Origin: a virus
Reading direction: 5' to 3' (one strand)
DNA length: 64,000 nt
IMG/VR virus record: IMGVR_UViG_3300027977_000031
Coordinates: 1-64,000 of that record
The notes under the pieces are model-generated. The model did no database searches. It worked only from the letters and a program-made list of their open reading frames with translations, and had not been told where the DNA came from. The first letter of the stretch is position 1. The number at the start of each line of letters is the position of its first letter. Of the stretch, positions 8,408 through 55,752 are shown piece after piece. A program made the translations under genes and the position numbers.

Positions 8408-8413
8408 AGCACT

Positions 8414-38848: not shown

Positions 38849-39922
38849 ATGTCTAATCTTACCATTCCCTTCACTGGTCTCCGCCAACAGTATAATAATC
38901 TACGTGAAGAGATCCTGGATGCAACCGATATAGTGTTGCGTTCTGGAAATCTTATGGATGGCAACTATACTGCTGAGTTTGAATCATGGTTGGCCAAAAA
39001 GAATCATAATTCATATGCAGTAACCTGTCACTCTGGAACACAGGCGTTGGAAATCATTGCTGGTTACTGTTTTAGTCACATTCGTGATCACGATAAAACT
39101 CCCACAGTGCTAGTTCCAGCCATGACATATCCTGCTACGGTCAATGCATTTATGAAAACAGGTTGGCAAGTAGAAATTGTTGATACTGATTCATATGGAT
39201 GTATGGATCCTTTTCAGATTAAAAATGAGTATGATGCTATTTGTGTTGTGGGGTTATATGGTTCTGCATTACAACACAGATGGAATACTATGACTGATTG
39301 TTTAATTGAAGATGGTGCTCAACACTGGCTTTCAAACAACTGTGAACGACAATCTAACTCCACTGCTATCAGTTTTGATCCTACAAAGAATCTTCCCAAC
39401 TACGGCAATGGTGGTGCAGTGGTAACCTCTGATTTGTATCTAGCCGACTATGCCCGTAACTGGATCAATAATGGCAAGGCCAGCGGGCACAGTGTAATTG
39501 GCACAAACAGTCGCATGAGTGAAATTGATTGTGCTCAGATGATGGTCAAAACTCAATACCTAGACGACTGGCAACTACGCAGAAGCAAGATAGCAAGATA
39601 CTGGATGACCAGGCTAGAAGACCGTTCCGTTAGGTGTTTGATTGATGATACTAACTTTAGAAGCCATGCATTACAAAAGTTTGTGATTGAAGTAGATAAT
39701 CAAAGTCAATTGCAACAACATCTTTCTGCTTGCCAAATTGATACCAAGATTCATTATCGTAGTCCCTTGCACGAACTTGATGCATATCAAAACCTCAAAG
39801 GACCCAGTTTGTTGAGTGTGGCATCAAGTCTGTCACGACGATGTATCTCATTGCCATTTTATCCAGAACTTACTGATCTAGAAATTGATCATATTATTGA
39901 TTCGGTGTTAGCTGCCGTTTGA
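38849..39922 (+). CDS. DegT/DnrJ/EryC1/StrS-family sugar aminotransferase (PLP-dependent)
   Basis: N-terminal F.GL..QY..L..EIL.A...VL.SG....G.....FE..LA.....YAV.C.SGT.ALE pattern. Confidence 0.55.
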   Translation: MSNLTIPFTGLRQQYNNLREEILDATDIVLRSGNLMDGNYTAEFESWLAKKNHNSYAVTCHSGTQALEIIAGYCFSHIRDHDKTPTVLVPAMTYPATVNAFMKTGWQVEIVDTDSYGCMDPFQIKNEYDAICVVGLYGSALQHRWNTMTDCLIEDGAQHWLSNNCERQSNSTAISFDPTKNLPNYGNGGAVVTSDLYLADYARNWINNGKASGHSVIGTNSRMSEIDCAQMMVKTQYLDDWQLRRSKIARYWMTRLEDRSVRCLIDDTNFRSHALQKFVIEVDNQSQLQQHLSACQIDTKIHYRSPLHELDAYQNLKGPSLLSVASSLSRRCISLPFYPELTDLEIDHIIDSVLAAV

Positions 39923-41210
39923 AAAAAGCATAGCTAGCTAACCATTCCCATTCATAGCTTTTCTTTAGTTGATCAAAGTCTCCGGCTACTTCATTATAGT
40001 AGTCTAGAGCATCTTGTGCGCCTGCTGCACTCAATGCACTGCGAACACTTTGATTTTGTGTTAGCCATTGCTGTATACGATATTCATTTTCTATATCGGG
40101 CAAGCTGGCTCGCAACTTTAGCACTTCTCTAAAGGCTGTGCGCCAGGTGCTCCAGTCCGAGGTGTTGTAAGCAGCTATGCCACTCACAATTGGCACCACT
40201 TCGTGCGGTGAATCTAGTGTGAAATCTAATCCCACACCTGGGTTGTTTAACACCAGTTGTTTGTTGTATGCAATCATGGCCTGATGCCCGTACTCCAAGC
40301 CATTGCACGGATTTTTGGCATGAAAGATATAATGCTTGGCCTGCTGCATATAGTCTGGTTGCCATGACCAATCAAAATCAATATCCACTTCTAGCTTGGC
40401 AAACACAGCAAAGAACCACGGTGTGGTGCTGAGTCTTGCTGCTGCGTGATATGCTGCTGCTCGTCCGTTGATGCTGTCTACTCGCACTGTGCGATTTGTC
40501 TTGGGCAATAGAATTAAACGTTTGAGATTTTGTTCAGCATTGAGTTCTCCATTTGAAATGAATACTATGTCTAACTGTTGACTGGGATTTAAATTTTTCT
40601 TTTGTAAATATTGATAGTCATACACTTGCTTGCGGATACTCCCATGTGCATTTCTTGGTACCAAACAGGATGCTTGATTGCTAGTAAGTCCAACCACTGG
40701 CTGTTCTCTCCATAGCCACGGGTCAGGTTGCACAGTCACTGGGTTATTTTCATGTTCAAACAACACATACGGAGTATGACATTGTGAACTAGCAATAGCA
40801 GCAACCACACTGTCTTGATTGTATTGTATTTTTTGCCAAGGTAATCTAGCAACAGATTCATGTTCGAAATTTACATCTTTATATTGTTCCAATCTTGCCA
40901 ATGAATCTTTTTGTTGATTCCACTGAGCTGTTGGTATTAAAAATGTATCACCAAATTGTTGGTCGCCGCTGGGCCAACAATGTATTTGGTGACTTTGCCA
41001 CGGAGTAGGCTCCCATAAAAAATCAAAGTCACTGTAATCACAACAACTGCTCAACACCCAAAAATATCTAGTTCGTATATTTTGAGATCCTCGACGAATA
41101 GTAGACAGGTGATCAGTCCAATTAACTATTTTGGCATGCGGCAATCGATCACGTAAATACTCCACATTCGACGAATGCCCTCCCATATTCATAATTACAA
41201 TATCAAACAT
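39894..41210 (-). CDS. hypothetical protein in the glycan-modification block
   Basis: Long ORF; no motif I can name. Confidence 0.4.
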   Translation of the reverse strand: MFDIVIMNMGGHSSNVEYLRDRLPHAKIVNWTDHLSTIRRGSQNIRTRYFWVLSSCCDYSDFDFLWEPTPWQSHQIHCWPSGDQQFGDTFLIPTAQWNQQKDSLARLEQYKDVNFEHESVARLPWQKIQYNQDSVVAAIASSQCHTPYVLFEHENNPVTVQPDPWLWREQPVVGLTSNQASCLVPRNAHGSIRKQVYDYQYLQKKNLNPSQQLDIVFISNGELNAEQNLKRLILLPKTNRTVRVDSINGRAAAYHAAARLSTTPWFFAVFAKLEVDIDFDWSWQPDYMQQAKHYIFHAKNPCNGLEYGHQAMIAYNKQLVLNNPGVGLDFTLDSPHEVVPIVSGIAAYNTSDWSTWRTAFREVLKLRASLPDIENEYRIQQWLTQNQSVRSALSAAGAQDALDYYNEVAGDFDQLKKSYEWEWLASYAFFKRQLTPNQ

Positions 41211-41245: not shown

Positions 41246-42433
41246 ATGATTTATATAGCAGTGGATCACATACATCCAGGCACATGCAAGCCCATGCCTA
41301 ATGGTATCCCTATTCATTTACATGATCAATTGGATTACCAGGACGGACAAAGATTAGATTTTCCTCGTATTATACATTATCTTCGAGATTGCAATATTCC
41401 ATCTGCAACGGTACTGACGTCTAACGCTCCAGTAGGTGCGTGGTATCCAGTAGTGATAGGATGGTTTGATTTTTCTCAAGATTATCTAAGTTTAATCAGT
41501 GGGCAGGCATTGGCACGTTTGAAGAAAAAAGAAATAAAACTGGTGTTTACGTACCATGAAGGAGATCATCCGGGTCCTATACGACAACGATTAGATGACC
41601 TGTGCTATCAGCATAATATAGACTCAGAACTAGTATGGTTAATTTCTGGTAATTCGTCGGCTGACCAATATCACAATACTGTGTACTGGCCCGAATTAGA
41701 ATTTATGTATTGGCGTACTGTAAATCGTAAGTACGGTGCAATTTATCATTTGCAGCCAAGATCACGAGCCTACATATCCTTGTGCAGAGTTGACAAACTA
41801 TGGCGCAAAGTATTCATGAGCGATTTATGGAGTCATGGATTACACCAGCGTGGTTATTTCAGTTATAATCAACATTTGCTAGGATCCGAAGACGACTATC
41901 ATGGGTGTGCATTAAATAATAATTATCTTGCTGAATGCCAATCAAGAGTCAATGAGTTTGTTGCATCAGGACCATTTCGTGTGGATGATCTTGATACAGC
42001 AGCCCATAATAACTATCATGAAAACATGACTGCGCTCTACGCAGAAAGCTATTTTAACATTGTGTTAGAAACCATGATTGATGTGGATTCATCTAATGGC
42101 CAATTTATCACAGAAAAAACATTTAAACCCATATTCAACAATCAATTTTTTGTAGCTGTGAGTTCAGTTGATCATCAACGTCATTTGCGTGACTTAGGAT
42201 ATCAAACTTTTGGTCGATGTATAGATGAAAATTATGATTCAATTGCCGACAATCAACAACGATTTGAAGCTGTGTTGGATATTACAAAATCATTGATACG
42301 TTCTGGTCTTAAAAATTTACATCAATTGTATATTGATCTGGCACCTGAGATACAACACAATTCTAATGTGTTCCAGGCTGGTATGGCTCATAGATTACAA
42401 ACTGTTGTAGATTGTATTAACTGCAAACTTTGA
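41246..42433 (+). CDS. hypothetical protein (possible glycosyltransferase)
   Basis: Long ORF in a sugar-gene context. Confidence 0.35.
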   Translation: MIYIAVDHIHPGTCKPMPNGIPIHLHDQLDYQDGQRLDFPRIIHYLRDCNIPSATVLTSNAPVGAWYPVVIGWFDFSQDYLSLISGQALARLKKKEIKLVFTYHEGDHPGPIRQRLDDLCYQHNIDSELVWLISGNSSADQYHNTVYWPELEFMYWRTVNRKYGAIYHLQPRSRAYISLCRVDKLWRKVFMSDLWSHGLHQRGYFSYNQHLLGSEDDYHGCALNNNYLAECQSRVNEFVASGPFRVDDLDTAAHNNYHENMTALYAESYFNIVLETMIDVDSSNGQFITEKTFKPIFNNQFFVAVSSVDHQRHLRDLGYQTFGRCIDENYDSIADNQQRFEAVLDITKSLIRSGLKNLHQLYIDLAPEIQHNSNVFQAGMAHRLQTVVDCINCKL

Positions 42434-43895
42434 CTTGATAGCACTGCTGGAATCGATCAGCATCCCAACGATCATTGACCATTGGCTTGCCACGTATGTT
42501 AAGGCTGGTGTTTAATAGCATAGGGCATCCAGTCATAAAATTCCATTTTTCCAATAAAGCTCGGATGCCTGACCCATCAGCTGGAACAGTTTGTACACGA
42601 CTGGTACCATCATGATGAACAATAGCAGGAAACAACTCAGGATTCTTGCAAGTAGCAACCACTTGCATGTATCTACTGTTATTCCAGTGTCTGGGCATTT
42701 CAAAATAGTCATGTACATATTCTTCAAGAATAACTGGCGCAAATGGTCTAAATTTCTGTCGTTGTTTGATTTCGTTTACTTTGTTCTTGATCAAATGTCC
42801 TCGGGGATCTGCAAGTAAGCTTCTATTGCCCAGCGCTCGAGGACCAAATTCTGCACGACCGGATGCAACACCAACAATACAATCAGTAAGTAACACATCA
42901 AGTATGTCGTTAACAGGGTACTCGCCAGCAATGTTGTGGCCAAGAAAAGCAGTATCCCACTTGACTTGACTGCCTAATCCCAACGCCGCCGCGCCAAGGC
43001 TATTTCCTGCGTCACCAGGATTGGGTACAATCCAAATGTTTTCATAAAAATCTCCCAGTAAACGATTGGCCACACAGTTTAATGCCACACCGCCACCGTA
43101 CACTAAATTTTTACTTGTTCCCAATTGCCTGGCACGACTGATAACATTGCGTATCAATTGCTCTGTTAAAATCTGTGCGCTACATGCAATATCCATTGGG
43201 TCGGCATTGGGTAAAAATTCTTGATCAACTCCAATGTGCAAATTTTGCACAAACTGTGAATTATCTTTTGAATTCAAAAATTGCTGTTGCATCTCTCTAA
43301 GATACTGTGGCATCCCGTATGCAGCCATGCCCATGAGTATGTATTCTTCATCCAATGGGTGTAGTCCTACACGTTGAGTCATTGCGGAATAAAACAACCC
43401 AATGCTGTGTGGATACTGCTGACTCCATAACTTTTTGTATTCAGCACGACCATTGGCATTGTATGTGGCATCCCATATGGTCACTGTATCAAACTCACCA
43501 ATGGCATCAATAACTACCACTGTGGCATCTGCATAAGGACTAGTTTGGAATCCTGCTGCTGCGTGACACAAATGATGTGCATGTGTATGCACACGCGGCC
43601 GACCCATGTGATTGTAAGTGTTACCTAATAATTTATCCCAGGTGGGCCATTGAAACCCTTCGCCACTGCGCAATTGTCTTAGAGCTTTAACCCAAGGACG
43701 TTCATAATAATGATATTCAATGCTGTCTGAATCTACATGCGCCAATGCATCAACTAATAACTCTGCACATACATCTTTGTCATGTTTTTTCTTACTATAA
43801 CGTTCGCTGTGTGCTGCAAACAAAATATCTCCAGCGTCATTGATTACACTGATAGCAGCATCATGGAACCCAGCAGATATTCCTATGTAATTCAT
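42417..43895 (-). CDS. carbamoyltransferase (NodU/CmcH family)
   Basis: N-terminal MNYIGISAGFHDAAISVINDAG...AHSERYSKKKHD typical of the family. Confidence 0.6.
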   Translation of the reverse strand: MNYIGISAGFHDAAISVINDAGDILFAAHSERYSKKKHDKDVCAELLVDALAHVDSDSIEYHYYERPWVKALRQLRSGEGFQWPTWDKLLGNTYNHMGRPRVHTHAHHLCHAAAGFQTSPYADATVVVIDAIGEFDTVTIWDATYNANGRAEYKKLWSQQYPHSIGLFYSAMTQRVGLHPLDEEYILMGMAAYGMPQYLREMQQQFLNSKDNSQFVQNLHIGVDQEFLPNADPMDIACSAQILTEQLIRNVISRARQLGTSKNLVYGGGVALNCVANRLLGDFYENIWIVPNPGDAGNSLGAAALGLGSQVKWDTAFLGHNIAGEYPVNDILDVLLTDCIVGVASGRAEFGPRALGNRSLLADPRGHLIKNKVNEIKQRQKFRPFAPVILEEYVHDYFEMPRHWNNSRYMQVVATCKNPELFPAIVHHDGTSRVQTVPADGSGIRALLEKWNFMTGCPMLLNTSLNIRGKPMVNDRWDADRFQQCYQVKVCS

Positions 43896-43989
43896 TTGTA
43901 GATAAAAGGATCGCGCTTGCGTAGTTCTTTTAATTTTTTACGGTAACGAATCTCTAGAGTAATCTTTGCCCAAATGTGTCGAATCCAGT

Positions 43990-45030
43990 TCATTTTAATT
44001 TCCTTATTTGTTGTTGATCATAATCAGGATCACTCCAATTATATTCATATGTAGCTTGAAATTTTGAAGTGCGTATTTTATATACATTCAAATGTTCAGC
44101 TAGTTTTTTCCATATCACTTGATAGTCTGTAGTCCCAAAACTACGTATCAAATCTACTTGTGCTACTTTTGGATGCCCAATGGTTAATGATTTATCATCA
44201 GGATCGAATCCATTGGCTCTAAGCCATTCACGAAATTCTTTGAGCATTTTGATCTGCCACGGAAATGATCCTGGATCATTGGCCCATTCAATATCAAAGT
44301 CTCCGGCAGCTTCAGTTTGTGATCTAAGTGTGCTTGTGACTAATTCACCAACACGGCTGTCTCTTCCTTCATCATTGAATACTTCCCAATGGTGTTTGCC
44401 TACTGCTTTATTAACACCCACATATACTCCACCAAGCTGTCGATTGATTGTGTCAACTCCAAACAATTCGTAATCGGCAGGGTCTAGTGTGAATCTAGGA
44501 GCCCGTAGCCAACACATCAATTGTGATGGTCTACGCCATTCTGGTGCTGTGAGTAATTTTCGTATGCTTAATACCAAACTTTCAAGTTCATGACATAATA
44601 GATTTAATTGTCTAATGTGCCATCTTGTAAAATCGTCGGCTGCGGTATAGTAAGGGCTCATTGATCCTGATACCCCTTGGAGATCTTCAAAATATCTGTG
44701 CAATTGGTTCATATGATCTTGATTAATGCCGCCGTTTTCTGTTACAGTATTAGCCGGGCTAAAAAAATCTTGTATTACGTATCCTAACTGAGCCTGATTG
44801 ATTGCATGAATGCTGTTATTAATTTGTGTACAGATATAATCTAGATTTCGTTGATTCTCAGTCCAGCCTAGCCAACAGTAATTTTTTTCCAAATGATAGT
44901 CAAATTCAATCAAGTGGTTTAATGCTGTGATCCATTTACGTGCAAGACTGTTATTGTACACGTCAATATAAACTGTTAGCAATTGATTATTGTTGTCACG
45001 CAAATCTATTTCAATTGAGTTATCAAGCAT
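43990..45030 (-). CDS. hypothetical protein
   Basis: Long ORF. Confidence 0.4.
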   Translation of the reverse strand: MLDNSIEIDLRDNNNQLLTVYIDVYNNSLARKWITALNHLIEFDYHLEKNYCWLGWTENQRNLDYICTQINNSIHAINQAQLGYVIQDFFSPANTVTENGGINQDHMNQLHRYFEDLQGVSGSMSPYYTAADDFTRWHIRQLNLLCHELESLVLSIRKLLTAPEWRRPSQLMCWLRAPRFTLDPADYELFGVDTINRQLGGVYVGVNKAVGKHHWEVFNDEGRDSRVGELVTSTLRSQTEAAGDFDIEWANDPGSFPWQIKMLKEFREWLRANGFDPDDKSLTIGHPKVAQVDLIRSFGTTDYQVIWKKLAEHLNVYKIRTSKFQATYEYNWSDPDYDQQQIRKLK

Positions 45031-46312
45031 GGTTCAACCACCATTCTAGCACTGCTGGTCTTGCTGCCAAGATGTCAGTCATTGTCAATGAGTGACTCCG
45101 TATTTGTTCTAGTTGTAGAATACGGGCTCGCCCTTTAGAAAATCCTTGTTGATATTCATCAGGCCACTGCTCTTCAAATGTAGGACGAGTTTTTAGTTGT
45201 ATCAATACATCTTGCATGGCCCCTGATGTTTCTTGGATTAATTCATCCAGCCACGGATGTAATATATGCCTAGGCAATGCTAATGGGCTCATCACAATGT
45301 CTGGTGAGAATGAAAAAATAACTTTAGCCAATACGCCTACATTGAATTGCTGGGCAAGTTTTGTAATTTTTTTAACTTCGAACATTCCAGGTAAAGTGAG
45401 TGTAAAGTCAATTCTGACTTGACGTGAGTGGCGTTGGATTGCAACTGCGCCTCGGAAGTTTTCAAGCCATTGATCATAATCAAGACCTGTTCTAATGTAT
45501 TCACCAATTGCGCCTGTGCCGTCAAGGCTTGCGCATATCTGCCAGTCTCTGATCTCAGGAAGAATGTCGCGATAGAGATTAATGCCACGGTATTCCACCC
45601 TAGACAAGTTGGTATTATATCTAGCATATACTTGTGGGCCATCCCCTAATTCTATTATTCGTTTCATGTATCGCCAATGTTGCTCGTACATCAAAGGCTC
45701 GCCACCTACCCAGTAAATTTCTTCTACTCGGTGTTGCTCAACTGCATTACTAAACTCCAGTTCAATTTGGTTGTCTTGAAACTTTGAAATTTGTTCACGT
45801 ACAACTGGCCGCATCCAATTATTTTTAGGATCAGTCCAGTTGACCATGTCATGGGTTTTTTGTTCTGTTTCCCAGGCACTGCTCAACATATCTCCGCAAG
45901 TTCTACATTTGAAATTGCATAAGTTACTAAATCTATAATCCCAACTAACAGGCAAGACATCACAGGTGCCATCATCGTGCGTAGCTGCCATTACGTCATG
46001 ATATTTGTGTCGAAACAAGTGCCAAAAATATGTGCGATAAACATCTGTGTTTAACAATTGATCATTACATACTTCGCATTCAGGCAAGCGTTCGCCGGCC
46101 ATCATACGTCGGCGTACTGACTTCATGTGTTCACTGTTCCAATGTTCTTCTAATGTAATGGGTATGTAAGTACCTGTGCCTGCTTGAGTATCTATGTATT
46201 GTGTGAAATTTTGTGCTGGTTCTCTTGATGCACAACACATACGTCTTTCAGTTTGTGGAGAAAGATATGTATGTGTCCATGGTGCTAGACATAAGGTATC
46301 AGGTTTTTGCAT
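45023..46312 (-). CDS. radical SAM enzyme, paralog 1 of 5 (N-terminal Cys-rich extension)
   Basis: CNFKCRTCG = CxxxCxxC; N-terminal C..PW...(11-16 residues)...CC motif shared with paralogs 2 and 3 (CxxxW...CxHPPxH in paralogs 4 and 5); GGEPL. Confidence 0.65.
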   Translation of the reverse strand: MQKPDTLCLAPWTHTYLSPQTERRMCCASREPAQNFTQYIDTQAGTGTYIPITLEEHWNSEHMKSVRRRMMAGERLPECEVCNDQLLNTDVYRTYFWHLFRHKYHDVMAATHDDGTCDVLPVSWDYRFSNLCNFKCRTCGDMLSSAWETEQKTHDMVNWTDPKNNWMRPVVREQISKFQDNQIELEFSNAVEQHRVEEIYWVGGEPLMYEQHWRYMKRIIELGDGPQVYARYNTNLSRVEYRGINLYRDILPEIRDWQICASLDGTGAIGEYIRTGLDYDQWLENFRGAVAIQRHSRQVRIDFTLTLPGMFEVKKITKLAQQFNVGVLAKVIFSFSPDIVMSPLALPRHILHPWLDELIQETSGAMQDVLIQLKTRPTFEEQWPDEYQQGFSKGRARILQLEQIRSHSLTMTDILAARPAVLEWWLNHA

Positions 46313-47588
46313 AATTCAGTAAAAGTGCCAATTCAGGATGATTGCAATTTAAATCCTGATTCCTACGATGATCCAATAGTCGAATCTGAGATCGTGTTTC
46401 TTCACCATCCATGGATTCACCGTTGTTCATAAAATTGATAATTCTTTCAAAATCAGATCTATATATTTCTGAAGCATCACACATGCTGAGATGGCTTGCA
46501 ATTTCTTGCTTGGCATCTGCGGGCAGTCTTGATATTGAAAAATACCAAGCATCGTGCATCATGTTCCAATAAACAAAATCAAAATCTTGTAATGCTATCC
46601 ATGATGCTACTTCGTCGAGGTATCTCACATTAAAAACATTCACAGTGGTGCAGCATTGTAACTGTAAGTTAGACATACCTTCACGCATGATTCTGAAACG
46701 ATTGATGTTTTCTTTTACGGTATCCCAGGCGGCGTTTGAGCGTTGATATTCAAACCGTGCGCTGATGTCATCTATTGAAAATGCTATCTCTACTGTTTTA
46801 AAATGTTTCCATATGTCCACGCCACGATCAGGAAACAATGTACCATTGGTATTATAATGTATCTCCACTTGGCTAGCGATGCCGCGATCTACTATGCCTT
46901 GCAGCATATCAAAGTGTTGATCAATCATGAATGGTTCGCCGCCAGTGAATTCAATATAACGTATATCATTCAACACTGAATCAATTTGCTGCCAGAAATG
47001 ATTGTTCTCTTTAGGCCATGCACCAGCACGTAGCATTTTATACGCATAACTAGATTTTTGTTCTGTTCGTGGTAAGAATGAAATTTCTTCACCAGCAAAT
47101 TGTGAACTTGACCAAGACCCGCATATACGGCACTTTAGGTTGCAGATGTTGCCTAATTTTAGATCCAATGACTGCAAAGGTTTTGGATCTATAGTCCAAT
47201 GTTCATCAGTTAATGTATGTTTGAGACGATCTAACGTGTGCATACGTTTTGATGTGCGTCCTGATTCTTCTTCATTCCAGCATTTACGACAAGTAGCAGA
47301 TTTCTTGCCATCGAGAAAGTCTAACCGCAATTTTTGCATGTGATTACTGCGCTGAATATCTGAAAACTCAGCTGTGGTTAGAGTAAATTTATTTCCATCA
47401 TTGTCTACTATCTCGTCATCGGCTAGGCAGCAAGGTCTTACTGTGCCAATAGGACTGGCTTCTAAGCTAATCCAAGGCAACACACAGAATTGATTGTGGG
47501 GAATTTTCACAGTAACGCTTTTAACTCTGGTATGATATTTAGCAGTTGCTCTGATCTGATGCTGTCGAGCTCGTGCGTTTTCCTCCAA
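46299..47588 (-). CDS. radical SAM enzyme, paralog 2 of 5
   Basis: CNLKCRICG; FTGGEPF; N-terminal CVLPW...PCC. Confidence 0.65.
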   Translation of the reverse strand: MEENARARQHQIRATAKYHTRVKSVTVKIPHNQFCVLPWISLEASPIGTVRPCCLADDEIVDNDGNKFTLTTAEFSDIQRSNHMQKLRLDFLDGKKSATCRKCWNEEESGRTSKRMHTLDRLKHTLTDEHWTIDPKPLQSLDLKLGNICNLKCRICGSWSSSQFAGEEISFLPRTEQKSSYAYKMLRAGAWPKENNHFWQQIDSVLNDIRYIEFTGGEPFMIDQHFDMLQGIVDRGIASQVEIHYNTNGTLFPDRGVDIWKHFKTVEIAFSIDDISARFEYQRSNAAWDTVKENINRFRIMREGMSNLQLQCCTTVNVFNVRYLDEVASWIALQDFDFVYWNMMHDAWYFSISRLPADAKQEIASHLSMCDASEIYRSDFERIINFMNNGESMDGEETRSQIRLLDHRRNQDLNCNHPELALLLNYAKT

Positions 47589-48766
47589 AAAGTATCAATG
47601 AGCTGAGTGTTGTCAGTAGCCATTAAAAACTTGATAGCTGATTCAAATCCCACTGTGGCACGTTGCAACGGATCTTGCGCACGTAACCATTCAATATGTT
47701 CTTGATACTTGATGCGCAAACGTTGTTTGTACTTCATTGGTGCAATATCAATTCTGTAAAATAGCGGATCTTGAAGAATATTTACATTGAGGTCTTGTGG
47801 TTTAATAAACCCACGTTCAACCCAATCTTTATGAAAGTCAGGTAAATGCCAAGCATTCAGAATGCTCAAGGTGGGACTGATGTAAAAATCCACGTTAGGA
47901 CATATCTTCATCATCTCAACTCGATTTTTTTCAATTTGTTCCCATCGAGTACCTTTTCTTATGTACTCGGCATATTGACCTGACCCATCTAAACTGGCAC
48001 CTACTGATACACTATTAAACAGTTTCCAGTATTCAAAAACGCTTTTTCCTTTAAGATTGGTATGTGTAAAGTTAGTGTTATAGATCAGTCTGACATCAAA
48101 TCTTTCTCTGCGTACCAGTTCGTCTAATATGTTATAGTGTTCTTCCATCAACAAAGGCTCGCCGCCGGCAAAGTATATTTGCTCAACATAATCCAGATGA
48201 GGTAACAACTGTTCCCACATGTCAGTTTCTGTTCGACCAGCATAGTTCAATACTTGATTTTGATCTTTCCACCCTTTGCCAGCCAACTCGGCTTGATCCT
48301 GATACCATTGGCTTGAAAAAATATGCCCACAGCTACGGCATTTTAAATTGCAAAGATTTGAGAACCGTATATCCCAATAGGTCATTTCAAATGGATTATC
48401 TTCAAGTTTCTTGATTTGATGCCCGTGATGCTTGTTTGCACTTTTTCTGCCAGAGAAAAATCCTGATTGCTCTTGTTCGTAGCAGCGCTCGCATGCTGGG
48501 TTAGGAGTTTCGCTCAGCATGTCAGCTCTTAATTGCTGCATGGGAAGATCTTTCCAGATCTCTTCTAAAGTATTGGTTCTGCAATTACCTACAGGATACT
48601 TCATCTCTGAATGACAACAGGGATATGCTTCGCCAGTTGGATAAGCATGTAAGTGGATCCAAGGATATATGCAAAAAGTCTTTGAATCAGTTAGTAAAAA
48701 TTTCTCACGGTCTGTGAGATTAGTGGATCGAACTAGATCACTGCTGTTATATTTGTATTGAGTCAT
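47507..48766 (-). CDS. radical SAM enzyme, paralog 3 of 5
   Basis: CNLKCRSCG; AGGEPL; N-terminal CIYPW...PCC. Confidence 0.65.
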   Translation of the reverse strand: MTQYKYNSSDLVRSTNLTDREKFLLTDSKTFCIYPWIHLHAYPTGEAYPCCHSEMKYPVGNCRTNTLEEIWKDLPMQQLRADMLSETPNPACERCYEQEQSGFFSGRKSANKHHGHQIKKLEDNPFEMTYWDIRFSNLCNLKCRSCGHIFSSQWYQDQAELAGKGWKDQNQVLNYAGRTETDMWEQLLPHLDYVEQIYFAGGEPLLMEEHYNILDELVRRERFDVRLIYNTNFTHTNLKGKSVFEYWKLFNSVSVGASLDGSGQYAEYIRKGTRWEQIEKNRVEMMKICPNVDFYISPTLSILNAWHLPDFHKDWVERGFIKPQDLNVNILQDPLFYRIDIAPMKYKQRLRIKYQEHIEWLRAQDPLQRATVGFESAIKFLMATDNTQLIDTFWRKTHELDSIRSEQLLNIIPELKALL

Positions 48767-50084
48767 ACCATGGTTTTAATGCAGGAAATGCATGGCCAAA
48801 ATCTTTATTGCGTCGTTGGTCATACTGTGTATAGAATTTTTTGAAATCGTTTAACAACTTGGGCATTTCAAATGATCCCGAATGTGGAGTTTTTACTATA
48901 TCCAGATAATCTATTAGCCGTTGAAGATGATTGACTTCATGCTCGTGTAAGAATTCATTGTGTTGATTGGCAATTAGCCAGGACTCTAACTTGTGTGCAT
49001 ATAGCATACGTAAATTATCAGGCAATACCAATGGTGATTGAAAACTAGGAAATCGAAGTATATTCAGTGTAAAGCTCAGAGCATCACGCCCATATTCGGT
49101 TTTCCATTGTAGCATACGTTCTAAGAATTGATCCAAACTGTCTAGACATAATGCATTAATGGTGTTCATCACATGTATTACACGGAATTGGCCACTGTCT
49201 AATAATCGTTCTACATTGTTTGTCCAATCATCCCAAATCAGTCCATCTCTAATGTATTCAGCCTGTAGTCCTGTGCTTTCGTTGGATGTGTAAAGGTCAA
49301 CTTCTAATCCTTCAATGCTGCCTAGCAATCGATCTAGATCCACTGCTGTGCCTAGATTTGAATTGATGGCCAGTCGTGTTTGGCTACGGCCAGGATTGTT
49401 TCGAAACCAGTCAATCAGTTTCCAAGTCTCAACAGACATCAATGGTTCGCCACCAGTGATTCTCAGTTCTTCAAGTGTTTTATGAAGATCACTTTCCCAC
49501 CAGGCAAAGAACGCCTCCACGTAAGGATTTGTTTCACCAACACGATACAATTGACTGCTTGTATGTTTGTGAGTGAAATGATTGCGACCATCAGACACAA
49601 GCCCTTGATAAGGTCCATTTTGATGTATGTCTCGGACCCATGTACTGCTGAAAGCAGGATTACAATAGCTACAAGCAAACTGACAGGTGCGATCAAAAGC
49701 AATTTCTAAGGTACGAAGATTAACGTCCTGATTGGGCAAAGTGTCATATGCTTCACTTAACGCCTCAATAGGATAAATTTTACTTTTGTACACACGGTCG
49801 CTGATAGCATCGCTGCCCATGTCTTCAATTTTCCAACAGTATTCACAACCTGCAGGACGTTCGCCTGCTTGCATTTTACGACGGTCTTCTTTCTTTTGAT
49901 CAGTATTGTGCAGCAGCTTGGGGTTGGTGGTGACTTTATCTCGGTCTACCAAATGAGCTGGCGGGTGATGGCAGCTGGTAGTCATACCGCTGCCAAGCCA
50001 AATGGTAGCATTGTACCATTTGGCTGCACAAAAACTTGCACTCTTGGTGTCTAGCACCTGTTGCTTGAATTCTAGATCAGTCAT
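48747..50084 (-). CDS. radical SAM enzyme, paralog 4 of 5
   Basis: CQFACSYCN; TGGEPL; N-terminal CAAKW...SCHHPPAH. Confidence 0.65.
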   Translation of the reverse strand: MTDLEFKQQVLDTKSASFCAAKWYNATIWLGSGMTTSCHHPPAHLVDRDKVTTNPKLLHNTDQKKEDRRKMQAGERPAGCEYCWKIEDMGSDAISDRVYKSKIYPIEALSEAYDTLPNQDVNLRTLEIAFDRTCQFACSYCNPAFSSTWVRDIHQNGPYQGLVSDGRNHFTHKHTSSQLYRVGETNPYVEAFFAWWESDLHKTLEELRITGGEPLMSVETWKLIDWFRNNPGRSQTRLAINSNLGTAVDLDRLLGSIEGLEVDLYTSNESTGLQAEYIRDGLIWDDWTNNVERLLDSGQFRVIHVMNTINALCLDSLDQFLERMLQWKTEYGRDALSFTLNILRFPSFQSPLVLPDNLRMLYAHKLESWLIANQHNEFLHEHEVNHLQRLIDYLDIVKTPHSGSFEMPKLLNDFKKFYTQYDQRRNKDFGHAFPALKPWYDSIQI

Positions 50085-50237
50085 TTATATTGTTGTATGT
50101 AGGAATTGCCAAAAACGGCCAAGAAACTCACTTTGAATTAGAGCGTAAAGTTCTATTAAATGTTGTTGGTTGTATTTACAATATATTACAGCACCAATCA
50201 AGGAAACTTGCAAGATTCTATTGACACAAATTGTAGA

Positions 50238-51608
50238 TTATCGAGCATGTAAACCACACTGTTTCCACCAGGTCAACATTTCAGGAAATGTCTTCTCAAA
50301 GTCTGTACCTCTACGTCGATCGTGTTCGTTAAAAAATCTATAAAAGTCTGCCAGCGCAGTAGGTTGAGGTGCAGATGATCGCATCCAATCTATATCACGC
50401 TCAAGACGTTGCACTTCATAGTCCTTGAATCCATGGAACGGGTTGGATCCAGTCTCTAAGTTTTCTAACATAAAGTCTCGTGCTTGTTCTAGTTTTGTAG
50501 CATAGCTCTCGGGCAAAGTCTGAAGGCTCTGCCATGCAGGTTGTCGTAGCACAGGTGTATCAAACCACACACGTTGATATGTTTTACTATGACGGCGGCG
50601 TAGATCTAGTATCCATTTTATCAATGGTAAGAAGCCAGTCACTGACAAATTGTTCATGGTCACAATAAATGTAAGACTGTTACGATATGGAATATCTGTG
50701 AGATATGTTTCCACATTGTTCTGCAATCGGGCAAAGTCCAATCCATGACGGATGTATTCAGCTTGCGGCCCTATGCCCGAATCGAGACTTACATATTGCA
50801 TGAAATGTTCGATATCAGTATCGCATAAGCGTTTCACATATCCAAAGTATTTGCTGGATAGTTCAGGCTCTACACTGAAGTTCGATGTGACTGCTAGATG
50901 TAGATCGTTTTTTGGATGTTCTAATACATAGTCAAACACTCGATAGGTGTTCCGATCCATTAGAGGTTCTCCACCAGTCATGCGAAAGTGTTTAAGCTCA
51001 GAGTATAGACTAGGCCACCATGACCAAAATGCTTCTACATAAGGGTTGTGATCACGGGCAGGAATAGGCTTCCGATGGCCGCTAAAATGCTCAGGAGCGT
51101 TATGAGGGACCAGAGTAGGAAATGCGCCATGTCGTTCAACTTCTTGCTGCCAGCTAGAGCTAAACTGCGGGCTACAATAACTGCATTTAAGATTGCAAGC
51201 ATTGTTAAAGTTAACTTCCACATACGACGGTATAACATCTTCATCACCAGTTGAGTTTTTTATCTTTTCAAAATCCACCGCAGCCCAGGGTTCACCTGAT
51301 CTGTAATGTCGATCACTTAGTTTGCCAAGATCCTCCATGTTCCAACAGTAAGAACATTCAGTAGGACGTTGCTGCTGTAGCATTATTTTTCGTTGTGCTT
51401 TTTTATGCCGTGTGTTATGCAAAGCAGCCGGATTGGTCGCTATCTCTTCAGGATCTATCGTATGCAACGGTGGATGATAGCAACTGTTATTTAACCCGGT
51501 GGTCAGATGCAAGCTGACCTGTTTCCATTTGGCCAGGCATAGTGCTGGCCCTAGATCAGCTTGCATCTTCTCAGCCGAAGATAAGAATTTACTTTTGTTT
51601 TCTGACAT
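50238..51608 (-). CDS. radical SAM enzyme, paralog 5 of 5
   Basis: CNLKCSYCS; TGGEPL; N-terminal CLAKW...SCYHPPLH. Confidence 0.65.
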   Translation of the reverse strand: MSENKSKFLSSAEKMQADLGPALCLAKWKQVSLHLTTGLNNSCYHPPLHTIDPEEIATNPAALHNTRHKKAQRKIMLQQQRPTECSYCWNMEDLGKLSDRHYRSGEPWAAVDFEKIKNSTGDEDVIPSYVEVNFNNACNLKCSYCSPQFSSSWQQEVERHGAFPTLVPHNAPEHFSGHRKPIPARDHNPYVEAFWSWWPSLYSELKHFRMTGGEPLMDRNTYRVFDYVLEHPKNDLHLAVTSNFSVEPELSSKYFGYVKRLCDTDIEHFMQYVSLDSGIGPQAEYIRHGLDFARLQNNVETYLTDIPYRNSLTFIVTMNNLSVTGFLPLIKWILDLRRRHSKTYQRVWFDTPVLRQPAWQSLQTLPESYATKLEQARDFMLENLETGSNPFHGFKDYEVQRLERDIDWMRSSAPQPTALADFYRFFNEHDRRRGTDFEKTFPEMLTWWKQCGLHAR

Positions 51609-52561
51609 TATCTTGCATCTATCTCTCTCACCATGACACCACGGTTTTGCCAGTTGCTACAATAATGATGTTTAAAAAATGCACTGGCCTCTACGGTAAG
51701 CATGTGCATGGGAAGATCCAATTGTGTATGTAATTCGTTGGCAATGTTGTTACTCACATGTTCTGGCTGTTCATCTTTTACTGTGAGCCACAATTCACTC
51801 AGTGTATCAAAATTTTGCACTTGTAAGTAATCCCAGTTTGTGAGCATGGTCATGTATGTGCCCTGGCGTGCGCCTGCTATAGCCCAATATCCGTAATCTG
51901 CATCTGCACCCACATTATGCCAGATGGTGAGATGGTCAAGATTGCGTCGATGCACACGAGATTGAAATTCAGTCACGGTGGGTCTACGCCCTCGATCCAA
52001 ACACATTTTTACTCCTTCACGGAATCCAGCACGCCAGGCGTGAAATGCAGATCCATTAGGATAAGTGGTTGAATAACTATCATGCATGGCCCAATATAGT
52101 GGGTCAAAACAAAACTCCACTTGGGTTTCGGTACGGCCGTCTGTGTTTTCGTGTGTGTGCATATTTTGCACATACTGCCGGGTCCAAGAACTTAGACCAC
52201 CGTTGCCGTACATGAGTCCATTCACATGGTTACGAGCCTTCCATCTAAACACAGCATGTTCGTAATCATCTGTAGGAAATGTCAATGTTTGATTAAAAAA
52301 CTCTGGATCTGGAAGATTATCACCATCGATCAAGATAAAACGTTCCGTGGTACTGGCTGTTGCTGCTGCTTTGTGTGCTGCATCTGATCCTTTGACTCCG
52401 TCTACTCGTGTGGCCCAGGGCACTAGATTACGTATCTTGACCCAGTGTTCTTCCTTTTGTGGCTCGTCGTAACTTAGATAGATGCAATCTAGATCAGCTA
52501 CATCAATTTGTTTCAATGACATTTTCTTGTTTCTTCCAGTATTTTCCTGATTGATCGGCAA
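51608..52561 (-). CDS. hypothetical protein
   Basis: Long ORF with ATGA overlap. Confidence 0.4.
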   Translation of the reverse strand: MPINQENTGRNKKMSLKQIDVADLDCIYLSYDEPQKEEHWVKIRNLVPWATRVDGVKGSDAAHKAAATASTTERFILIDGDNLPDPEFFNQTLTFPTDDYEHAVFRWKARNHVNGLMYGNGGLSSWTRQYVQNMHTHENTDGRTETQVEFCFDPLYWAMHDSYSTTYPNGSAFHAWRAGFREGVKMCLDRGRRPTVTEFQSRVHRRNLDHLTIWHNVGADADYGYWAIAGARQGTYMTMLTNWDYLQVQNFDTLSELWLTVKDEQPEHVSNNIANELHTQLDLPMHMLTVEASAFFKHHYCSNWQNRGVMVREIDAR

Positions 52562-52847
52562 CTACAATAGTTACATCTTGACTGTGACAAAGTGTTCCTG
52601 AGTCAGCAGTTACAAGTTTGTTAACCCAAATAGTTTTGTATTGGATGAGTTTTTTATCAACTACTCGTACTGCCATATTTTGCAATGCAAACTGTGCGGG
52701 TGTGATATCAATGTACTTACCAGGCAAATCTTCTTGACTGTAAAACAACGGCAACCCAGTATCGTCATGATATAATCTATAAAAAACTGGGTTGATTTCA
52801 GGCCACTTGATTGTTTCCCAAAAATCTAAAAATTCTTGTTCAGTCAT
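52503..52847 (-). CDS. hypothetical protein
   Basis: ORF. Confidence 0.35.
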   Translation of the reverse strand: MTEQEFLDFWETIKWPEINPVFYRLYHDDTGLPLFYSQEDLPGKYIDITPAQFALQNMAVRVVDKKLIQYKTIWVNKLVTADSGTLCHSQDVTIVVADQSGKYWKKQENVIETN

Positions 52848-53613
52848 TGCGCCAGTCCTTTTGATGATAATGCACTGCGCCCCATTGTGCCACAGTCTGA
52901 ATCCTTAATGGATTGGATTCCCAAATTAATTCTTGTGTCCAATTTTCTAAACGTGTTGGAATTATACCACGTTTCATATGTACAATACGAGGATAACTCA
53001 CAAACGGCATGGTCACACGTTCGGGGCCCATGATCTGTGCTGCCATGGCATAAACTAAATCCGTTGATGGAATTTCATCAGGAAATTTTATTAAAGTCTT
53101 GTATTGTGCCCAGTTTTCAAAAATTATCCTTACTAATTGAAAAAATTCTTGTGCAGTTTGACTTAGTCTCCAGTATGTTATAGCATTGTATACATCCGGC
53201 AAATTGTTAGAATCAAAAACTTTTCTATAGAATCTGTTGGTAGTTTTTTGATCATAAAAATCTCTTGCACCAGTGGATATCACCACATCTCTATGCTCTA
53301 ACATAGTCCACCAATGATCTATCGCACTGGCAATAATCATATCTGCTTCAAGTTTGATAGTTTGTCTGAAAGGACTGGCTCCAAATACCTGCCAGTCATT
53401 AGCATACGGGTTATCACTCAGCGGATATGGAAAAGTCTGATGATAATCAAACAAATTGGAATTGGGCAAATCTGTGTTGGATAACAAACAAATTTTAGCA
53501 TCAGGATGAAAATGTCGAATAGATCGAGCCAGTTGATTTGCACAGTCAACATAATCAACTGATTCAGAATTTTGTGCCATTATTAAATAGCCGCGTTCAC
53601 ACTGTATTGGCAA
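52840..53613 (-). CDS. hypothetical protein (possible nucleotide-diphospho-sugar transferase)
   Basis: ORF in the glycan block. Confidence 0.35.
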   Translation of the reverse strand: MPIQCERGYLIMAQNSESVDYVDCANQLARSIRHFHPDAKICLLSNTDLPNSNLFDYHQTFPYPLSDNPYANDWQVFGASPFRQTIKLEADMIIASAIDHWWTMLEHRDVVISTGARDFYDQKTTNRFYRKVFDSNNLPDVYNAITYWRLSQTAQEFFQLVRIIFENWAQYKTLIKFPDEIPSTDLVYAMAAQIMGPERVTMPFVSYPRIVHMKRGIIPTRLENWTQELIWESNPLRIQTVAQWGAVHYHQKDWRND

Positions 53614-54400
53614 CGATGTCTCCTAACTGTTGTTTGCACATGGCATGAAAATCCATGTTCTGCCAATCAATTGTTTTTAACTTGTCTTGGTTAAAATATT
53701 CAATTTGAAAATGATCTGGGCCGAGTTGCTTTAAGTTATAGCTAGAAATAATAGCTGCCAAGTTCCACGGTATATTGTCTACATTTAATGTATGACCACT
53801 CTCTATACCCAATGCAATGCTCAATGCATAGTCATTGCGAAAATTACCCCCATGACTATGATATAAGTCTTTGTAATGTACCCAATTATCTTTGACCATT
53901 TTCATGCAATCAAAAATATGTTCAGCTGTGGGACTTTTACGAAACATCATAACAGTGGCCCACCACATGGGCATGTGATTATCACCAAACCAGTTTAACC
54001 CTTTGAAGTCATTGACCCCTGTGATATCCCAGGACAACCGATGAGATAAAAAATCTTTTTTACTATCAATCACCGCAGTCAACTGATCACTGCAAACAAC
54101 ATAGTCGGCGTCTAATACCAGGGTCTGCTCCCAAGGAGTTAACGTGTATGCGTCCACCCTGCCGGCATTGTACCATGTTAATGTGTTTTGATAATCTTCA
54201 AAAAATCTTGTTCCGCCGCTGACCGGATCTGCTGATATCACACAATCAAATTTGGTCAATCGTGACGGATCTGTGCAGTCTGTTATTACGGCTGTGGGTA
54301 TTTTTAAATGTCGACGTATACGCTCTGCACTCCAAGCAGCCATACTAATATAGTCGGTTTGCTCATTGTCAAATGCAAATATCAATGCACCTGTGGTCAT
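53597..54400 (-). CDS. hypothetical protein (possible glycosyltransferase)
   Basis: ORF in the glycan block. Confidence 0.35.
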   Translation of the reverse strand: MTTGALIFAFDNEQTDYISMAAWSAERIRRHLKIPTAVITDCTDPSRLTKFDCVISADPVSGGTRFFEDYQNTLTWYNAGRVDAYTLTPWEQTLVLDADYVVCSDQLTAVIDSKKDFLSHRLSWDITGVNDFKGLNWFGDNHMPMWWATVMMFRKSPTAEHIFDCMKMVKDNWVHYKDLYHSHGGNFRNDYALSIALGIESGHTLNVDNIPWNLAAIISSYNLKQLGPDHFQIEYFNQDKLKTIDWQNMDFHAMCKQQLGDIVANTV

Positions 54401-54702
54401 CGTTTTTTATTCAATTGTTCATTCTCTACCAACCAAGCGTTCATTTGTTCTTGCCAATGACGCTGAGCTAACAACTGTAGATCTGCAATAGTTATCTTGA
54501 CTGGGGTTTCATAAAGATCCAGCAATACTGCTTGTTCTTGTAGACAAGCATGTAGTAGTGTGATCAGTTCAGGACCAGCACGCCACATCCCTCCTCCATA
54601 TGCAAACAGCATTCGAGCTTCGTATTTTTCTTTCAACACACGGCGTGCAGCCACATGATCAAATCGTGCTTTTGCATGAGAAATTAAATTGTCTGTATTC
54701 AT
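54397..54702 (-). CDS. hypothetical protein
   Basis: ORF. Confidence 0.35.
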   Translation of the reverse strand: MNTDNLISHAKARFDHVAARRVLKEKYEARMLFAYGGGMWRAGPELITLLHACLQEQAVLLDLYETPVKITIADLQLLAQRHWQEQMNAWLVENEQLNKKR

Positions 54703-54756: not shown

Positions 54757-55752
54757 TTAAACAACCGAACTGGTCACCGTTGGAGTTCCCCAGGTATTAG
54801 CTAATCCCTGTGCGGTTGATGGCGTGAAAACACTACATAACACAGCAGGTGCTGTTCCAAACGCAGTAAATGGGCTTGTGGTATCAGTACCGCCACTGAT
54901 TCCAGTTTGCTGAAATTGTGTGGATTGAAACCAGGTGGTCGTTAGCCGCAATCCAGTTGTAGGGAAGGTGGTAAAAACCTCTGCTGCTTGTACCCGAATA
55001 AAACTAGAGCTATAAGGATATACCGAATTATTTAATTGAAACAATGTGGTGCTTGTGCCTATTGGGCCTGGGATTTGATACCATCCGGTTGTGGTTAGAT
55101 TTGGACTTGGTGTGCCTGATCCACCTATTCTTGTGAATCCTGTGTAAGTAACACCTGCAATGACTTGATTTGCATTGTTGACTCTACCACTAATATACAA
55201 GTCTCCCACAGTGGATACAAATGTATTCCAATCAGGATCTATGTCAGTGCTGTTTGAGGATTTGCTCATTCTTAACCTTATGAGACCGCCGGCATTCCAA
55301 AAATATCTAGTTTGAGCAGCACTAGGAAATATTACATTCTGTGTCCAGGTAATTGTCCAGCCGCTGGTACCCGGAACACCAGTATCGGTAGTTTTGGAAA
55401 TACTACCAGTCCAGGTTGGTGTACTTGATTGAATCCCAGTTGCAAATCCCCGTCTGGTTGTGACACTGGTAATATCTGTGGCTACATTGGCCAAGATAGC
55501 AATTACATTACCACTAACTGGTGATGTTCTTGCAGTCAATGTGGTGTTGGTTTGGCTGCCTGCTGTGGCCAGCGTGTTGACCAAAGCGGACCAATTAACA
55601 GCAGCTACCTCTCCGGACTGGCTGCTTACGGCGCTCAATGCAGTTTGTCCCCAGCCACTGTCACCCGACCCAGTACTCCAGATCGCATTCAGATTGTTCC
55701 GAAACGTATTATAGTCTGCTGCCTGAATTAATCCGCCTACTGAGTATGTCAT
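54757..55752 (-). CDS. tail fibre / receptor-binding protein, copy A of a tandem pair
   Basis: N-terminus MTYSVGGLIQAADYNTF and C-terminus ...AFGTAPAVLC...STAQGLANTWGTPTV nearly identical to copy B; Thr/Ser/Gly-rich. Confidence 0.5.
   Translation of the reverse strand: MTYSVGGLIQAADYNTFRNNLNAIWSTGSGDSGWGQTALSAVSSQSGEVAAVNWSALVNTLATAGSQTNTTLTARTSPVSGNVIAILANVATDITSVTTRRGFATGIQSSTPTWTGSISKTTDTGVPGTSGWTITWTQNVIFPSAAQTRYFWNAGGLIRLRMSKSSNSTDIDPDWNTFVSTVGDLYISGRVNNANQVIAGVTYTGFTRIGGSGTPSPNLTTTGWYQIPGPIGTSTTLFQLNNSVYPYSSSFIRVQAAEVFTTFPTTGLRLTTTWFQSTQFQQTGISGGTDTTSPFTAFGTAPAVLCSVFTPSTAQGLANTWGTPTVTSSVV

Follow-up and report, generated by a model that had tools for sequence, protein, structure and literature searches.

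The stretch of viral DNA analysed here, positions 1 to 64,000 of the IMG/VR virus record IMGVR_UViG_3300027977_000031 (64,000 nucleotides; hereafter the window), encodes five consecutive radical S-adenosylmethionine (SAM) enzymes, R1–R5, on its minus strand at 45023-51608. All five are members of the NCBIfam family NF033640 (N_Twi_rSAM, twitch domain-containing radical SAM protein). We hold, with moderate confidence, that they are five distinct functional enzymes tailoring a carbamoylated amino-sugar glycan, which would most likely be carried by fibre proteins. An original prediction, made from the nucleotide sequence of the window, had drawn attention to the five genes, and the open reading frame (ORF) listing of the 38-64 kb region has them exactly where it placed them.

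Family assignment and domain architecture

The five proteins match NF033640 over its full length (profile positions about 1-398), with E-values of 1.7e-85 to 1.5e-116 and scores of 287-390 bits against a curated cut-off of 170 bits. The individual scores are 287.5 bits for R1 (45023-46312, 429 amino acids, aa), 322.7 bits for R2 (46299-47510, 403 aa), 389.8 bits for R3 (47507-48766, 419 aa), 289.6 bits for R4 (48747-50084, 445 aa) and 315.9 bits for R5 (50238-51608, 456 aa). The most probable start of R2 is the ATG at 47510, which makes an ATGA overlap with the R3 stop; this start is preferred to an alternative TTG at 47588 because independent gene calls on identical metagenomic contigs give 403 aa. 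The length range of 419-456 aa proposed originally is therefore slightly off for this one gene. Adjoining genes of the array share between a few and about 20 bases, except for R5 and R4, which are separated by a 153-bp gap (50085-50237). This is the sole intergenic gap in the array, and in related phages an extra gene of about 370 aa occupies its position (7571-8686 in locus L006, 7567-8676 in locus L216).

Every motif quoted in the original prediction was located in R1–R5, namely CNFKCRTCG, CNLKCRICG, CNLKCRSCG, CQFACSYCN and CNLKCSYCS together with GGEP, as were the two N-terminal patterns, C..PW..CC in R1–R3 and CxxxW..CxHPPxH in R4 and R5. In the alignment of the five paralogs (R1 numbering), the invariant columns comprise C8, C27, C79 and C82, the SAM-cluster triad C132/C136/C139, G203-G204-E205-P206, and a few polar residues. 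The four N-terminal cysteines are spaced C-x18-C-x41-51-C-x2-C. Neither CxxxCxxC nor GGEP varies among the five paralogs or among 92 family sequences. The additional cysteines of each paralog do not co-align, which rules out an extra conserved Cys as a family-wide hydrogen donor.

The Pfam SPASM domain is recognized at the N-terminus of R1 (residues 8-83), R2 (residues 35-104) and R3 (residues 32-96), with E-values down to 2.8e-12, and is followed by the Pfam Radical_SAM core (residues 127-309 in R1, about 127-310 in R1–R3). SPASM is not reported by Pfam in R4 and R5, yet the same four N-terminal cysteines align. The domain order in all five proteins is an auxiliary-cluster domain, the radical SAM core and a helical C-terminal region, whose approximately 80 residues are all-helical by prediction. 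The Cys-rich extension, which had been described as impossible to place in a named subfamily, is thus assigned to NF033640 as a SPASM/twitch-type auxiliary-cluster domain. The full-length family matches and the retained ligand cysteines confirm that the genes are genuine, intact radical SAM paralogs with a common N-terminal Cys-rich domain.

In a review of the enzyme class (PMC9012708), SPASM/twitch domains are defined as C-terminal extensions, i.e., they follow the core, whereas the auxiliary domain of R1–R5 precedes it. According to the same review, the auxiliary cluster of BtrN has four Cys ligands and is proposed to act as an electron acceptor, while that of MoaA is held by three Cys, leaving an iron site open for substrate binding. 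The four N-terminal cysteines of R1–R5 would fit a fully ligated, BtrN-type cluster. R1–R5 would work like the SPASM/twitch group but with a permuted architecture, and lie outside every characterised equivalog. Other radical SAM models, including those of viperin, MoaA, QueE, BlsE, anSME-like enzymes and maturases of ribosomally synthesized peptides with post-translational modifications (RiPPs), give 15-31 bits against cut-offs of 180-850. A placement in an anSME- or QueE-type subfamily, the outcome that would have spoken against the original prediction, is not what was found: R1–R5 score far below the anSME, QueE, MoaA and viperin-type cut-offs.

Behind NF033640, the best-scoring NCBIfam models are in many cases those of prokaryotic viperin and MoaA, enzymes with nucleoside triphosphates as substrates. 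It could thus be imagined that R1–R5 act on free nucleotides in a viperin- or MoaA-like manner, for host takeover or counter-defence and with no link to a glycan. We give this hardly any credence, as these matches (15-66 bits against cut-offs of 180-284) reflect the generic core only, while genomic contexts and fusions point to glycans.

A phmmer search with R3 against PDB sequences gave nothing meaningful and no close solved relative. The full-length fold is seen in about 20 clusters of predicted viral structures, all with generic names and mostly from uncultured freshwater tailed phages, in addition to Vibrio phages KVP40 and phi-pp2. The window encodes a sixth radical SAM protein (24197-25240, plus strand, 347 aa), 20 kb from the array. 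This protein is of the ordinary SPASM-related kind and not a member of NF033640; its best matches (AhbD, TIGR04053-like) reach about 61 bits, far under the cut-offs.

Age and conservation of the five paralogs

R1–R5 are only 20-33% identical to one another and fall into two subgroups, {R1, R2, R3} and {R4, R5}, R4 being 33% identical to R5 and 20-26% identical to R1–R3. At least 80 related loci are present in IMG/VR, in genomes of about 340-352 kb. Among 80 such loci searched with the family hidden Markov model, 56 carry five copies, 18 carry six to eight and six carry three or four, some of these last six loci being truncated. The conserved core block has the order u317-R5-R4-R3-R2-R1-u346-carbamoyltransferase, into which some relatives have inserted extra short-chain dehydrogenase/reductase (SDR) genes, u395 paralogs or additional radical SAM genes. 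A more distant lineage (locus L215) retains all five orthogroups in unchanged order, at 48-71% identity.

Median orthologue identities are 74% for R1, 68% for R2, 79% for R3, 74% for R4, 71% for R5 and 75% for u317, compared with about 55-58% for the less conserved fibre genes. The seven ligand cysteines are kept in 91-100% of the 72-80 sequences available per paralog (R1, 96-100% of 77 sequences; R2, 100% of 76 sequences; R4, 91-100%). Because the orthologues are 60-99% identical and the ligand cysteines are retained to this extent, R1–R5 are evidently functional and under purifying selection. Pseudogene status is excluded by the conservation of all ligand cysteines in the 72-80 orthologues of each paralog.

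Judged by their divergence, R1–R5 represent an old, fixed set of five orthogroups with no recent tandem expansion. The description of the genes as tandem paralogs holds in so far as they form a tandem array, but the recent expansion that it implies does not, since they share only 20-33% identity and the distant L215 lineage has the same set. Vibrio phage K566 has four copies that, like the arrays found in bacteria, are equidistant from all five paralogs, which indicates independent radiations.

Bacterial relatives and their glycan contexts

The family is large. A phmmer search with R3 against 1.84 billion cluster representatives at 50% identity returned 10,415 matches with E <= 1e-3 and 1,382 with E <= 1e-30, including two-copy fused proteins and many sequences with an extra N-terminal extension of about 130 residues; their source names are generic. 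Some relatives are fused directly to carbohydrate enzymes. In three proteins of about 855 aa (P0496, P0471 and P0482), an N_Twi_rSAM region (residues ~20-365) is followed by an EpsE-like family 4 glycosyltransferase (GT4) at residues 445-835. These fusions are relatives of a member encoded on a Methylomagnum plasmid, while other relatives carry the carbohydrate-binding module CBM_4_9. The glycosyltransferase (GT)-fused clade scores 169-176 bits against NF033640, i.e., at the cut-off.

All six cellular contexts sampled are polysaccharide or glycan loci. The Methylomagnum plasmid locus (L007) contains GT2, two GT4, GT39, AsnB, UbiA, polyprenyl synthase and an ATP-binding cassette (ABC) transporter, and a Candidatus Manganitrophus plasmid (L008) contains GT4 genes, kinases and an ABC transporter. 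A third locus (L217) combines Wzm/Wzt, GT4, GT2, a polysaccharide deacetylase and a CBM protein, and a fourth (L218) has RmlA/RmlC-like genes, two SDRs and GT2. Tandem family copies occur in the remaining two, with two copies beside GT4, AsnB and UbiA (L219) and four beside UbiA, GT2 and an acetyltransferase (L220).

Full-text literature searches yielded no paper on the NF033640 family or on such phage loci. A paper on moraphages (PMC12619734) deals with a lineage other than that of the present phage, and a cyanophage paper merely labels a similar pair of DegT and radical SAM genes "antibiotic synthesis".

Sugar genes and other neighbours of the array

The flanking sugar genes named in the original prediction were each verified by Pfam above threshold. 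An SDR-type NAD-dependent sugar epimerase/dehydratase (37749-38720, plus strand) matches Epimerase (PF01370) at 156 bits and GDP_Man_Dehyd at 115 bits, and a DegT/DnrJ/EryC1-type sugar aminotransferase (38849-39922, plus strand) matches PF01041 at 187 bits over its full length. The O-carbamoyltransferase of NodU/CmcH type (42417-43895, minus strand, 492 aa) contains Carbam_trans_N (122.1 bits) and Carbam_trans_C (159.2 bits), whose cut-offs are 24 and 27, respectively. It is not the NodU equivalog, as it reaches 120 bits against a cut-off of 1000.

The claim of several glycosyltransferase-like ORFs stands in part: u257 and u267 are GT8-like and u317 is weakly GT2-like, while u346, u395 and u438 gave no credible family match. 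For u257 (52840-53613, minus strand), a candidate GT8 (glycogenin-like) glycosyltransferase, the orthologue profile finds glycogenin-1 in the PDB over the N-terminal ~90 residues. Its paralog u267 (53597-54400, minus strand) is a further GT8-like candidate, and the paralogy is recovered by hhalign (E 2.2e-21, probability 99.4%). The two proteins carry LDADY and LEADM motifs, with LDADY in u267, and have no Pfam match. A possible GT-A/GT2-like glycosyltransferase, u317 (51608-52522, minus strand), has an invariant D-G-D motif and a Glyco_tranf_2_3 signal in 5 of 23 orthologues. It is the most conserved gene of the block apart from the radical SAM genes (75% median identity is over 70 sequences) and almost always adjoins R5. 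A single-sequence AlphaFold2 model of u317 was unusable (predicted local distance difference test, pLDDT, 33), and the orthologue profiles of u317, u346 and u267 found nothing significant among PDB sequences.

Two small conserved proteins with no family match accompany these genes: u114 (52503-52847, minus strand), which recurs in related loci, and u101 (54397-54702, minus strand), which lies between the fibre and GT8-like genes and is found in 47 related loci. The gene u346 (43990-45030, minus strand), for which no Pfam, NCBIfam, PHROG or PDB match was obtained, always lies between R1 and the pair formed by a microprotein gene and the carbamoyltransferase gene. In relatives, paralogs of u395 (41246-42433, plus strand) occur as insertions within or close to the array. 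The segment YFNIVLET...FITEKTFKPI of u395 resembles the signature of GT10 fucosyltransferases, but such an identity is unsupported, as a profile search of the PDB gave just an artefact of transcription activator-like (TAL)-effector repeats. The gene u438 (39894-41210, minus strand) contains a u317-like region. The u317 fold family is thus repeated in these loci (u317 and u438), always accompanying radical SAM genes.

Related modules in other phages

A minimal form of the module is found in RsoM2USA, a cultured Ralstonia jumbo phage with a genome of 343.8 kb (locus L002, 5166-12090). It comprises ORF355 (fibre-like), ORF354 (a small ORF), ORF353 (u267-like), ORF352 (u257-like), ORF351 (a small ORF), ORF350 (u317-like, 41.6% identity), ORF349 (an R5-like radical SAM protein with 35.6% identity and 316 bits on NF033640) and ORF348 (a second u317-like gene). 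ORF350 and ORF348 match both u317 and u438. The module comes straight after ORF356, a structural protein confirmed in virions by mass spectrometry. ORF348-355 are all annotated as hypothetical and are not discussed in the RsoM2USA publication. The two phages share a syntenic arrangement in which a GT8-like pair, u317-like genes and a radical SAM gene of the R5 orthogroup follow structural genes. RsoM2USA differs in having one radical SAM gene instead of five, and in lacking the carbamoyltransferase and the microprotein within the stretch fetched.

Between one and four members of the family occur in T4-like Vibrio phages, with four in K566 (L001, 14980-22719), where a GT8-like gene adjoins them. 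GT8-like genes consequently stand beside family members in three unrelated phage lineages, represented by the present phage, RsoM2USA and K566. In K566 and nt-1 (L221), the family genes are near PagP-like lipid A acylation and NAD-salvage genes and not near structural genes; the target of the modification may differ between phage groups.

Fibre-like genes and the possible destination of the proposed glycan

Three minus-strand genes with fibre-like features lie on the far side of the glycosyltransferase candidates. TF331 (54757-55752) and TF326 (55819-56799) are putative fibre or adhesin genes with no family match, and TF470 (56812-58224), with PHROG virion-structural matches, is a structural or fibre-like gene whose orthologue in L215 shows a faint Peptidase_G2 match and is located after a GP38 adhesin-like gene. 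TF331 and TF326 are 80% identical and, to judge from this, are the product of a recent duplication, in contrast to the old radical SAM paralogs. With a Ser+Thr content of 30-33%, the highest in the window (median 12%), their products are candidate glycan acceptors. The label of tail fibre that these genes had been given is itself a putative one.

The array had been said to lie immediately upstream of the fibre genes. Five genes in fact intervene (u317, u114, u257, u267 and u101, 51608-54702) and, in the direction of transcription, the radical SAM genes lie downstream of the fibre genes. Overlapping genes here form one minus-strand block, which extends from the fibre genes, by way of the GT8-like pair, u317 and the radical SAM genes, to the carbamoyltransferase. 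Virion fibres are favoured as the destination because of this same-strand position after the fibre genes, the Ser+Thr content and the precedent of glycogenin. That the glycan would be placed on the Ser/Thr-rich fibre proteins encoded just upstream is nevertheless the weakest inference of the proposal.

The same glycan chemistry might alternatively remodel the host envelope (lipopolysaccharide, LPS; capsule; or exopolysaccharide, EPS), e.g., for superinfection exclusion or receptor masking. Bacterial relatives do reside in loci of the O-antigen/EPS type with Wzm/Wzt ABC transporters, the family genes of K566 and nt-1 are close to a PagP-like lipid A acylation gene and away from structural genes, and phage LPS/glycan clusters are usually interpreted in this manner (e.g., in the discussion of PMC12619734). 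However, the module follows fibre or structural genes directly and on the same strand in the present phage, L215, L216 and RsoM2USA, and the GT8-like genes resemble glycogenin, a protein-glycosylating enzyme. Furthermore, the phage locus showed no flippase, polymerase, ABC exporter or polyprenyl-phosphate transferase. Envelope remodelling is accordingly considered rather unlikely, though a serious alternative, and a fibre-borne glycan is preferred.

A microprotein coupled to the carbamoyltransferase

The ORF at 43892-43993 (minus strand), which the original prediction does not mention, lies between u346 and the carbamoyltransferase gene and encodes a microprotein of 33 aa, MNWIRHIWAKITLEIRYRKKLKELRKRDPFIYK. 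Its start and stop overlap these two genes by ATGA, an arrangement of translational coupling. The microprotein is found in 75 of 88 loci, and its C-terminal 21 residues, LEIRYRKKLKELRKRDPFIYK, are almost invariant despite two to five synonymous codons per site, which points to selection on its protein sequence. It has no family match. A wider search with a degenerate DNA pattern for ELRKRDPFIY identified more than 120 viral contigs. A carbamoyltransferase is the next gene in 94 of about 100 loci, and of the 65 loci whose upstream sequence extends for 4 kb or more, 38 carry the pair with no radical SAM gene of the family in the fetched flank. The microprotein thus belongs with the carbamoyltransferase; a role as partner subunit, substrate or regulator is conceivable. 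The pattern also occurs in six "bacterial" contigs from metagenome-assembled genomes (L089-L094; two of them 148 kb and 183 kb long), labelled Haliscomenobacter, Legionellales, Lishizhenia, Legionella and beta proteobacterium. They show the phage synteny of R1, u346, peptide and carbamoyltransferase and are probably phage DNA mis-binned into bacterial genomes.

R1–R5 could alternatively be RiPP-like maturases, in common with most SPASM/twitch radical SAM enzymes, and cross-link, epimerise or oxidise residues in a fibre protein or in the microprotein, the sugar genes being a separate matter. Radical SAM arrays with several paralogs are known from RiPP clusters. The nearest solved folds of R1–R5 include the peptide maturases anSME, SkfB, CteB, EpeE and SuiB, all at 12-22% identity, several RiPP maturases are among the secondary NCBIfam matches, and the locus does contain a 33-aa peptide that is strongly conserved and invariant at its C-terminus. 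This explanation is regarded as unlikely. The microprotein tracks the carbamoyltransferase and not the radical SAM genes, and was for this reason rejected as their precursor peptide; because the pair often occurs with no radical SAM gene, it is unlikely to be their substrate. Searches of Pfam and NCBIfam reveal no RiPP recognition element (RRE) or PqqD-type domain in R1–R5, in which the N-terminus is a twitch domain and the C-terminal ~80 residues are helical by prediction. Bacterial relatives have GT4 or CBM fusions and sit in glycan loci with no obvious precursor gene, and RsoM2USA keeps its radical SAM gene together with GT8-like and u317-like genes. Where the original prediction had allowed for radical modification of either a sugar or a peptide, the glycan option is strengthened, indirectly, by the fusions, the polysaccharide contexts and the two GT8-like genes, and the peptide alternative is weakened. 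Taken as a whole, the original interpretation is upheld in part.

Phage lineage and other genes of the window

A near-identity DNA search with the array gave no match among 50,697 phage records. Exact or near-exact copies of R3 are present on metagenomic contigs of up to 256-348 kb, and the lineage, one of freshwater jumbo phages, is abundant in metagenomes from lakes (hundreds of contigs). The window also encodes a 1,634-aa structural protein resembling those of jumbo phages of the PA5oct, Atu_ph07 and SCTP-2 types. On the plus strand, a MoxR-type AAA+ ATPase (32012-33097) adjoins a DUF2201 metallopeptidase/von Willebrand factor A (VWA) protein (33803-35086), and a periplasmic binding protein of the TctC/Bug family is encoded at 29629-30558. 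Bug proteins are typical of Burkholderiales. The TctC/Bug gene hints at a betaproteobacterial host, consistent with the Ralstonia phage relative.

Radical SAM and pyridoxal phosphate (PLP) enzymes act in thymidine hypermodification in some phages. In the present phage, ThyX (36445-37134, plus strand) is encoded just upstream of the locus, and a deoxycytidylate (dCMP) deaminase gene is inserted in the equivalent L215 locus. Phage glycosyltransferases that glycosylate DNA are described as well, according to the citation of Pyle et al. 2024 in PMC12619734. The locus might therefore hypermodify phage DNA, with the radical SAM enzymes, the aminotransferase and the carbamoyltransferase making sugars or other groups that are then attached to bases so as to evade restriction. 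This is highly improbable: the window revealed no base hydroxymethylase, DNA glycosyltransferase or typical kinase, the block lies within the structural-gene region, and the bacterial relatives are located in polysaccharide loci and fused to EPS-type GT4.

Proposed mechanism and comparison with known systems

According to the proposed glycan-tailoring role, the four N-terminal cysteines would bind a second, fully Cys-ligated [4Fe-4S] cluster, as suggested by the ligand pattern. The 5'-deoxyadenosyl radical would remove a hydrogen from a carbon of the sugar, in either a nucleotide-sugar or a nascent glycan, and the electron of the substrate radical would pass to the auxiliary cluster, in line with proposals for BtrN and anSME. 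The outcome might be oxidation to a keto-sugar, a possible feed for the DegT aminotransferase, or else epimerisation, dehydration or decarboxylation. The five paralogs would account for five separate steps or five sugar positions. The GT8-like and GT2-like transferases would install the sugar and the carbamoyltransferase would cap a hydroxyl, giving a heavily tailored, carbamoylated amino-sugar glycan.

Among characterised enzymes, BtrN (2-deoxy-scyllo-inosamine dehydrogenase) resembles R1–R5 in several respects: it combines a radical SAM core with one four-Cys auxiliary [4Fe-4S] site (predicted in the case of R1–R5), its substrate is amino-sugar-like, and it feeds or follows an aminotransferase of the DegT family, which is also represented in the phage locus. 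In BlsE (cytosylglucuronate decarboxylase) and anSME, by contrast, about 210 core residues align at 15-22% identity and the auxiliary domains are C-terminal. R1–R5 score 20 bits on the BlsE NCBIfam model against a cut-off of 400, and anSME modifies a protein, not a sugar. Compared with other NF033640 members, a fixed array of five orthogroups in a phage structural region is new, and the phage proteins score 287-390 bits versus about 170 for the GT-fused clade.

Giant-virus fibril glycans provide a comparison for virus-encoded glycosylation. To our knowledge, no phage-encoded glycan cluster and no phage or virus system for virion glycosylation includes radical SAM enzymes. The arrangement of virus-encoded GT and sugar-tailoring genes beside structural genes resembles that underlying capsid and tail glycosylation in mycobacteriophages, as far as PMC12619734 reports it from Freeman et al. 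2023. A GT8/glycogenin-like enzyme and a DegT-type aminotransferase are likewise involved in virus-encoded virion-glycosylation systems and have predicted counterparts in the present phage.

Several observations weigh against the proposed role. Literature and PDB searches found no characterised NF033640 member, solved structure or paper, so that the substrate and chemistry of R1–R5 are entirely inferred. The GT-fused clade shares only about 22-26% identity with the phage paralogs, and conclusions about its function might not carry over to them. The sample of cellular contexts is small (six loci), and those of the single-copy members of the nt-1/KVP40 type are uninformative. The glycosyltransferase assignments are weak, with an E-value of 1.6e-4 over a partial region for u257/u267 and a sub-threshold signal for u317 (best E 1.7e-4). 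Three genes of the locus (u346, u395 and u438) have no credible family match, and a nucleotidyltransferase that would activate sugars was not found in the window. Scans for promoters and terminators gave counts equal to the shuffle expectation and no sign of co-transcription with the fibre genes.

Implications for the NF033640 family and phage glycosylation

Characterised radical SAM enzymes with auxiliary clusters have mostly peptides, cofactors or sugars of antibiotic pathways as substrates. A more far-reaching possibility, tentative and rather doubtful at present, is that NF033640 constitutes a new class of carbohydrate-tailoring radical SAM enzymes with a permuted domain, five of which act serially with the GT8-like transferases, the aminotransferase and the carbamoyltransferase to place an unprecedented rearranged sugar on fibres. 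If this is true, a deoxygenated, epimerised or C-C-extended amino-sugar, for instance, could decorate the virion tail fibres. The fusions, the glycan-locus contexts and the multi-copy arrays give the large NF033640 family a testable assignment, that of radical glycan tailoring. The one-enzyme module of the cultured phage RsoM2USA is an immediate experimental handle, and the coupling of microprotein and carbamoyltransferase in more than 120 viral contigs constitutes a separate lead. If correct, a conserved five-step radical pathway would extend the glycosylation of virions or host surfaces well past simple sugar transfer.

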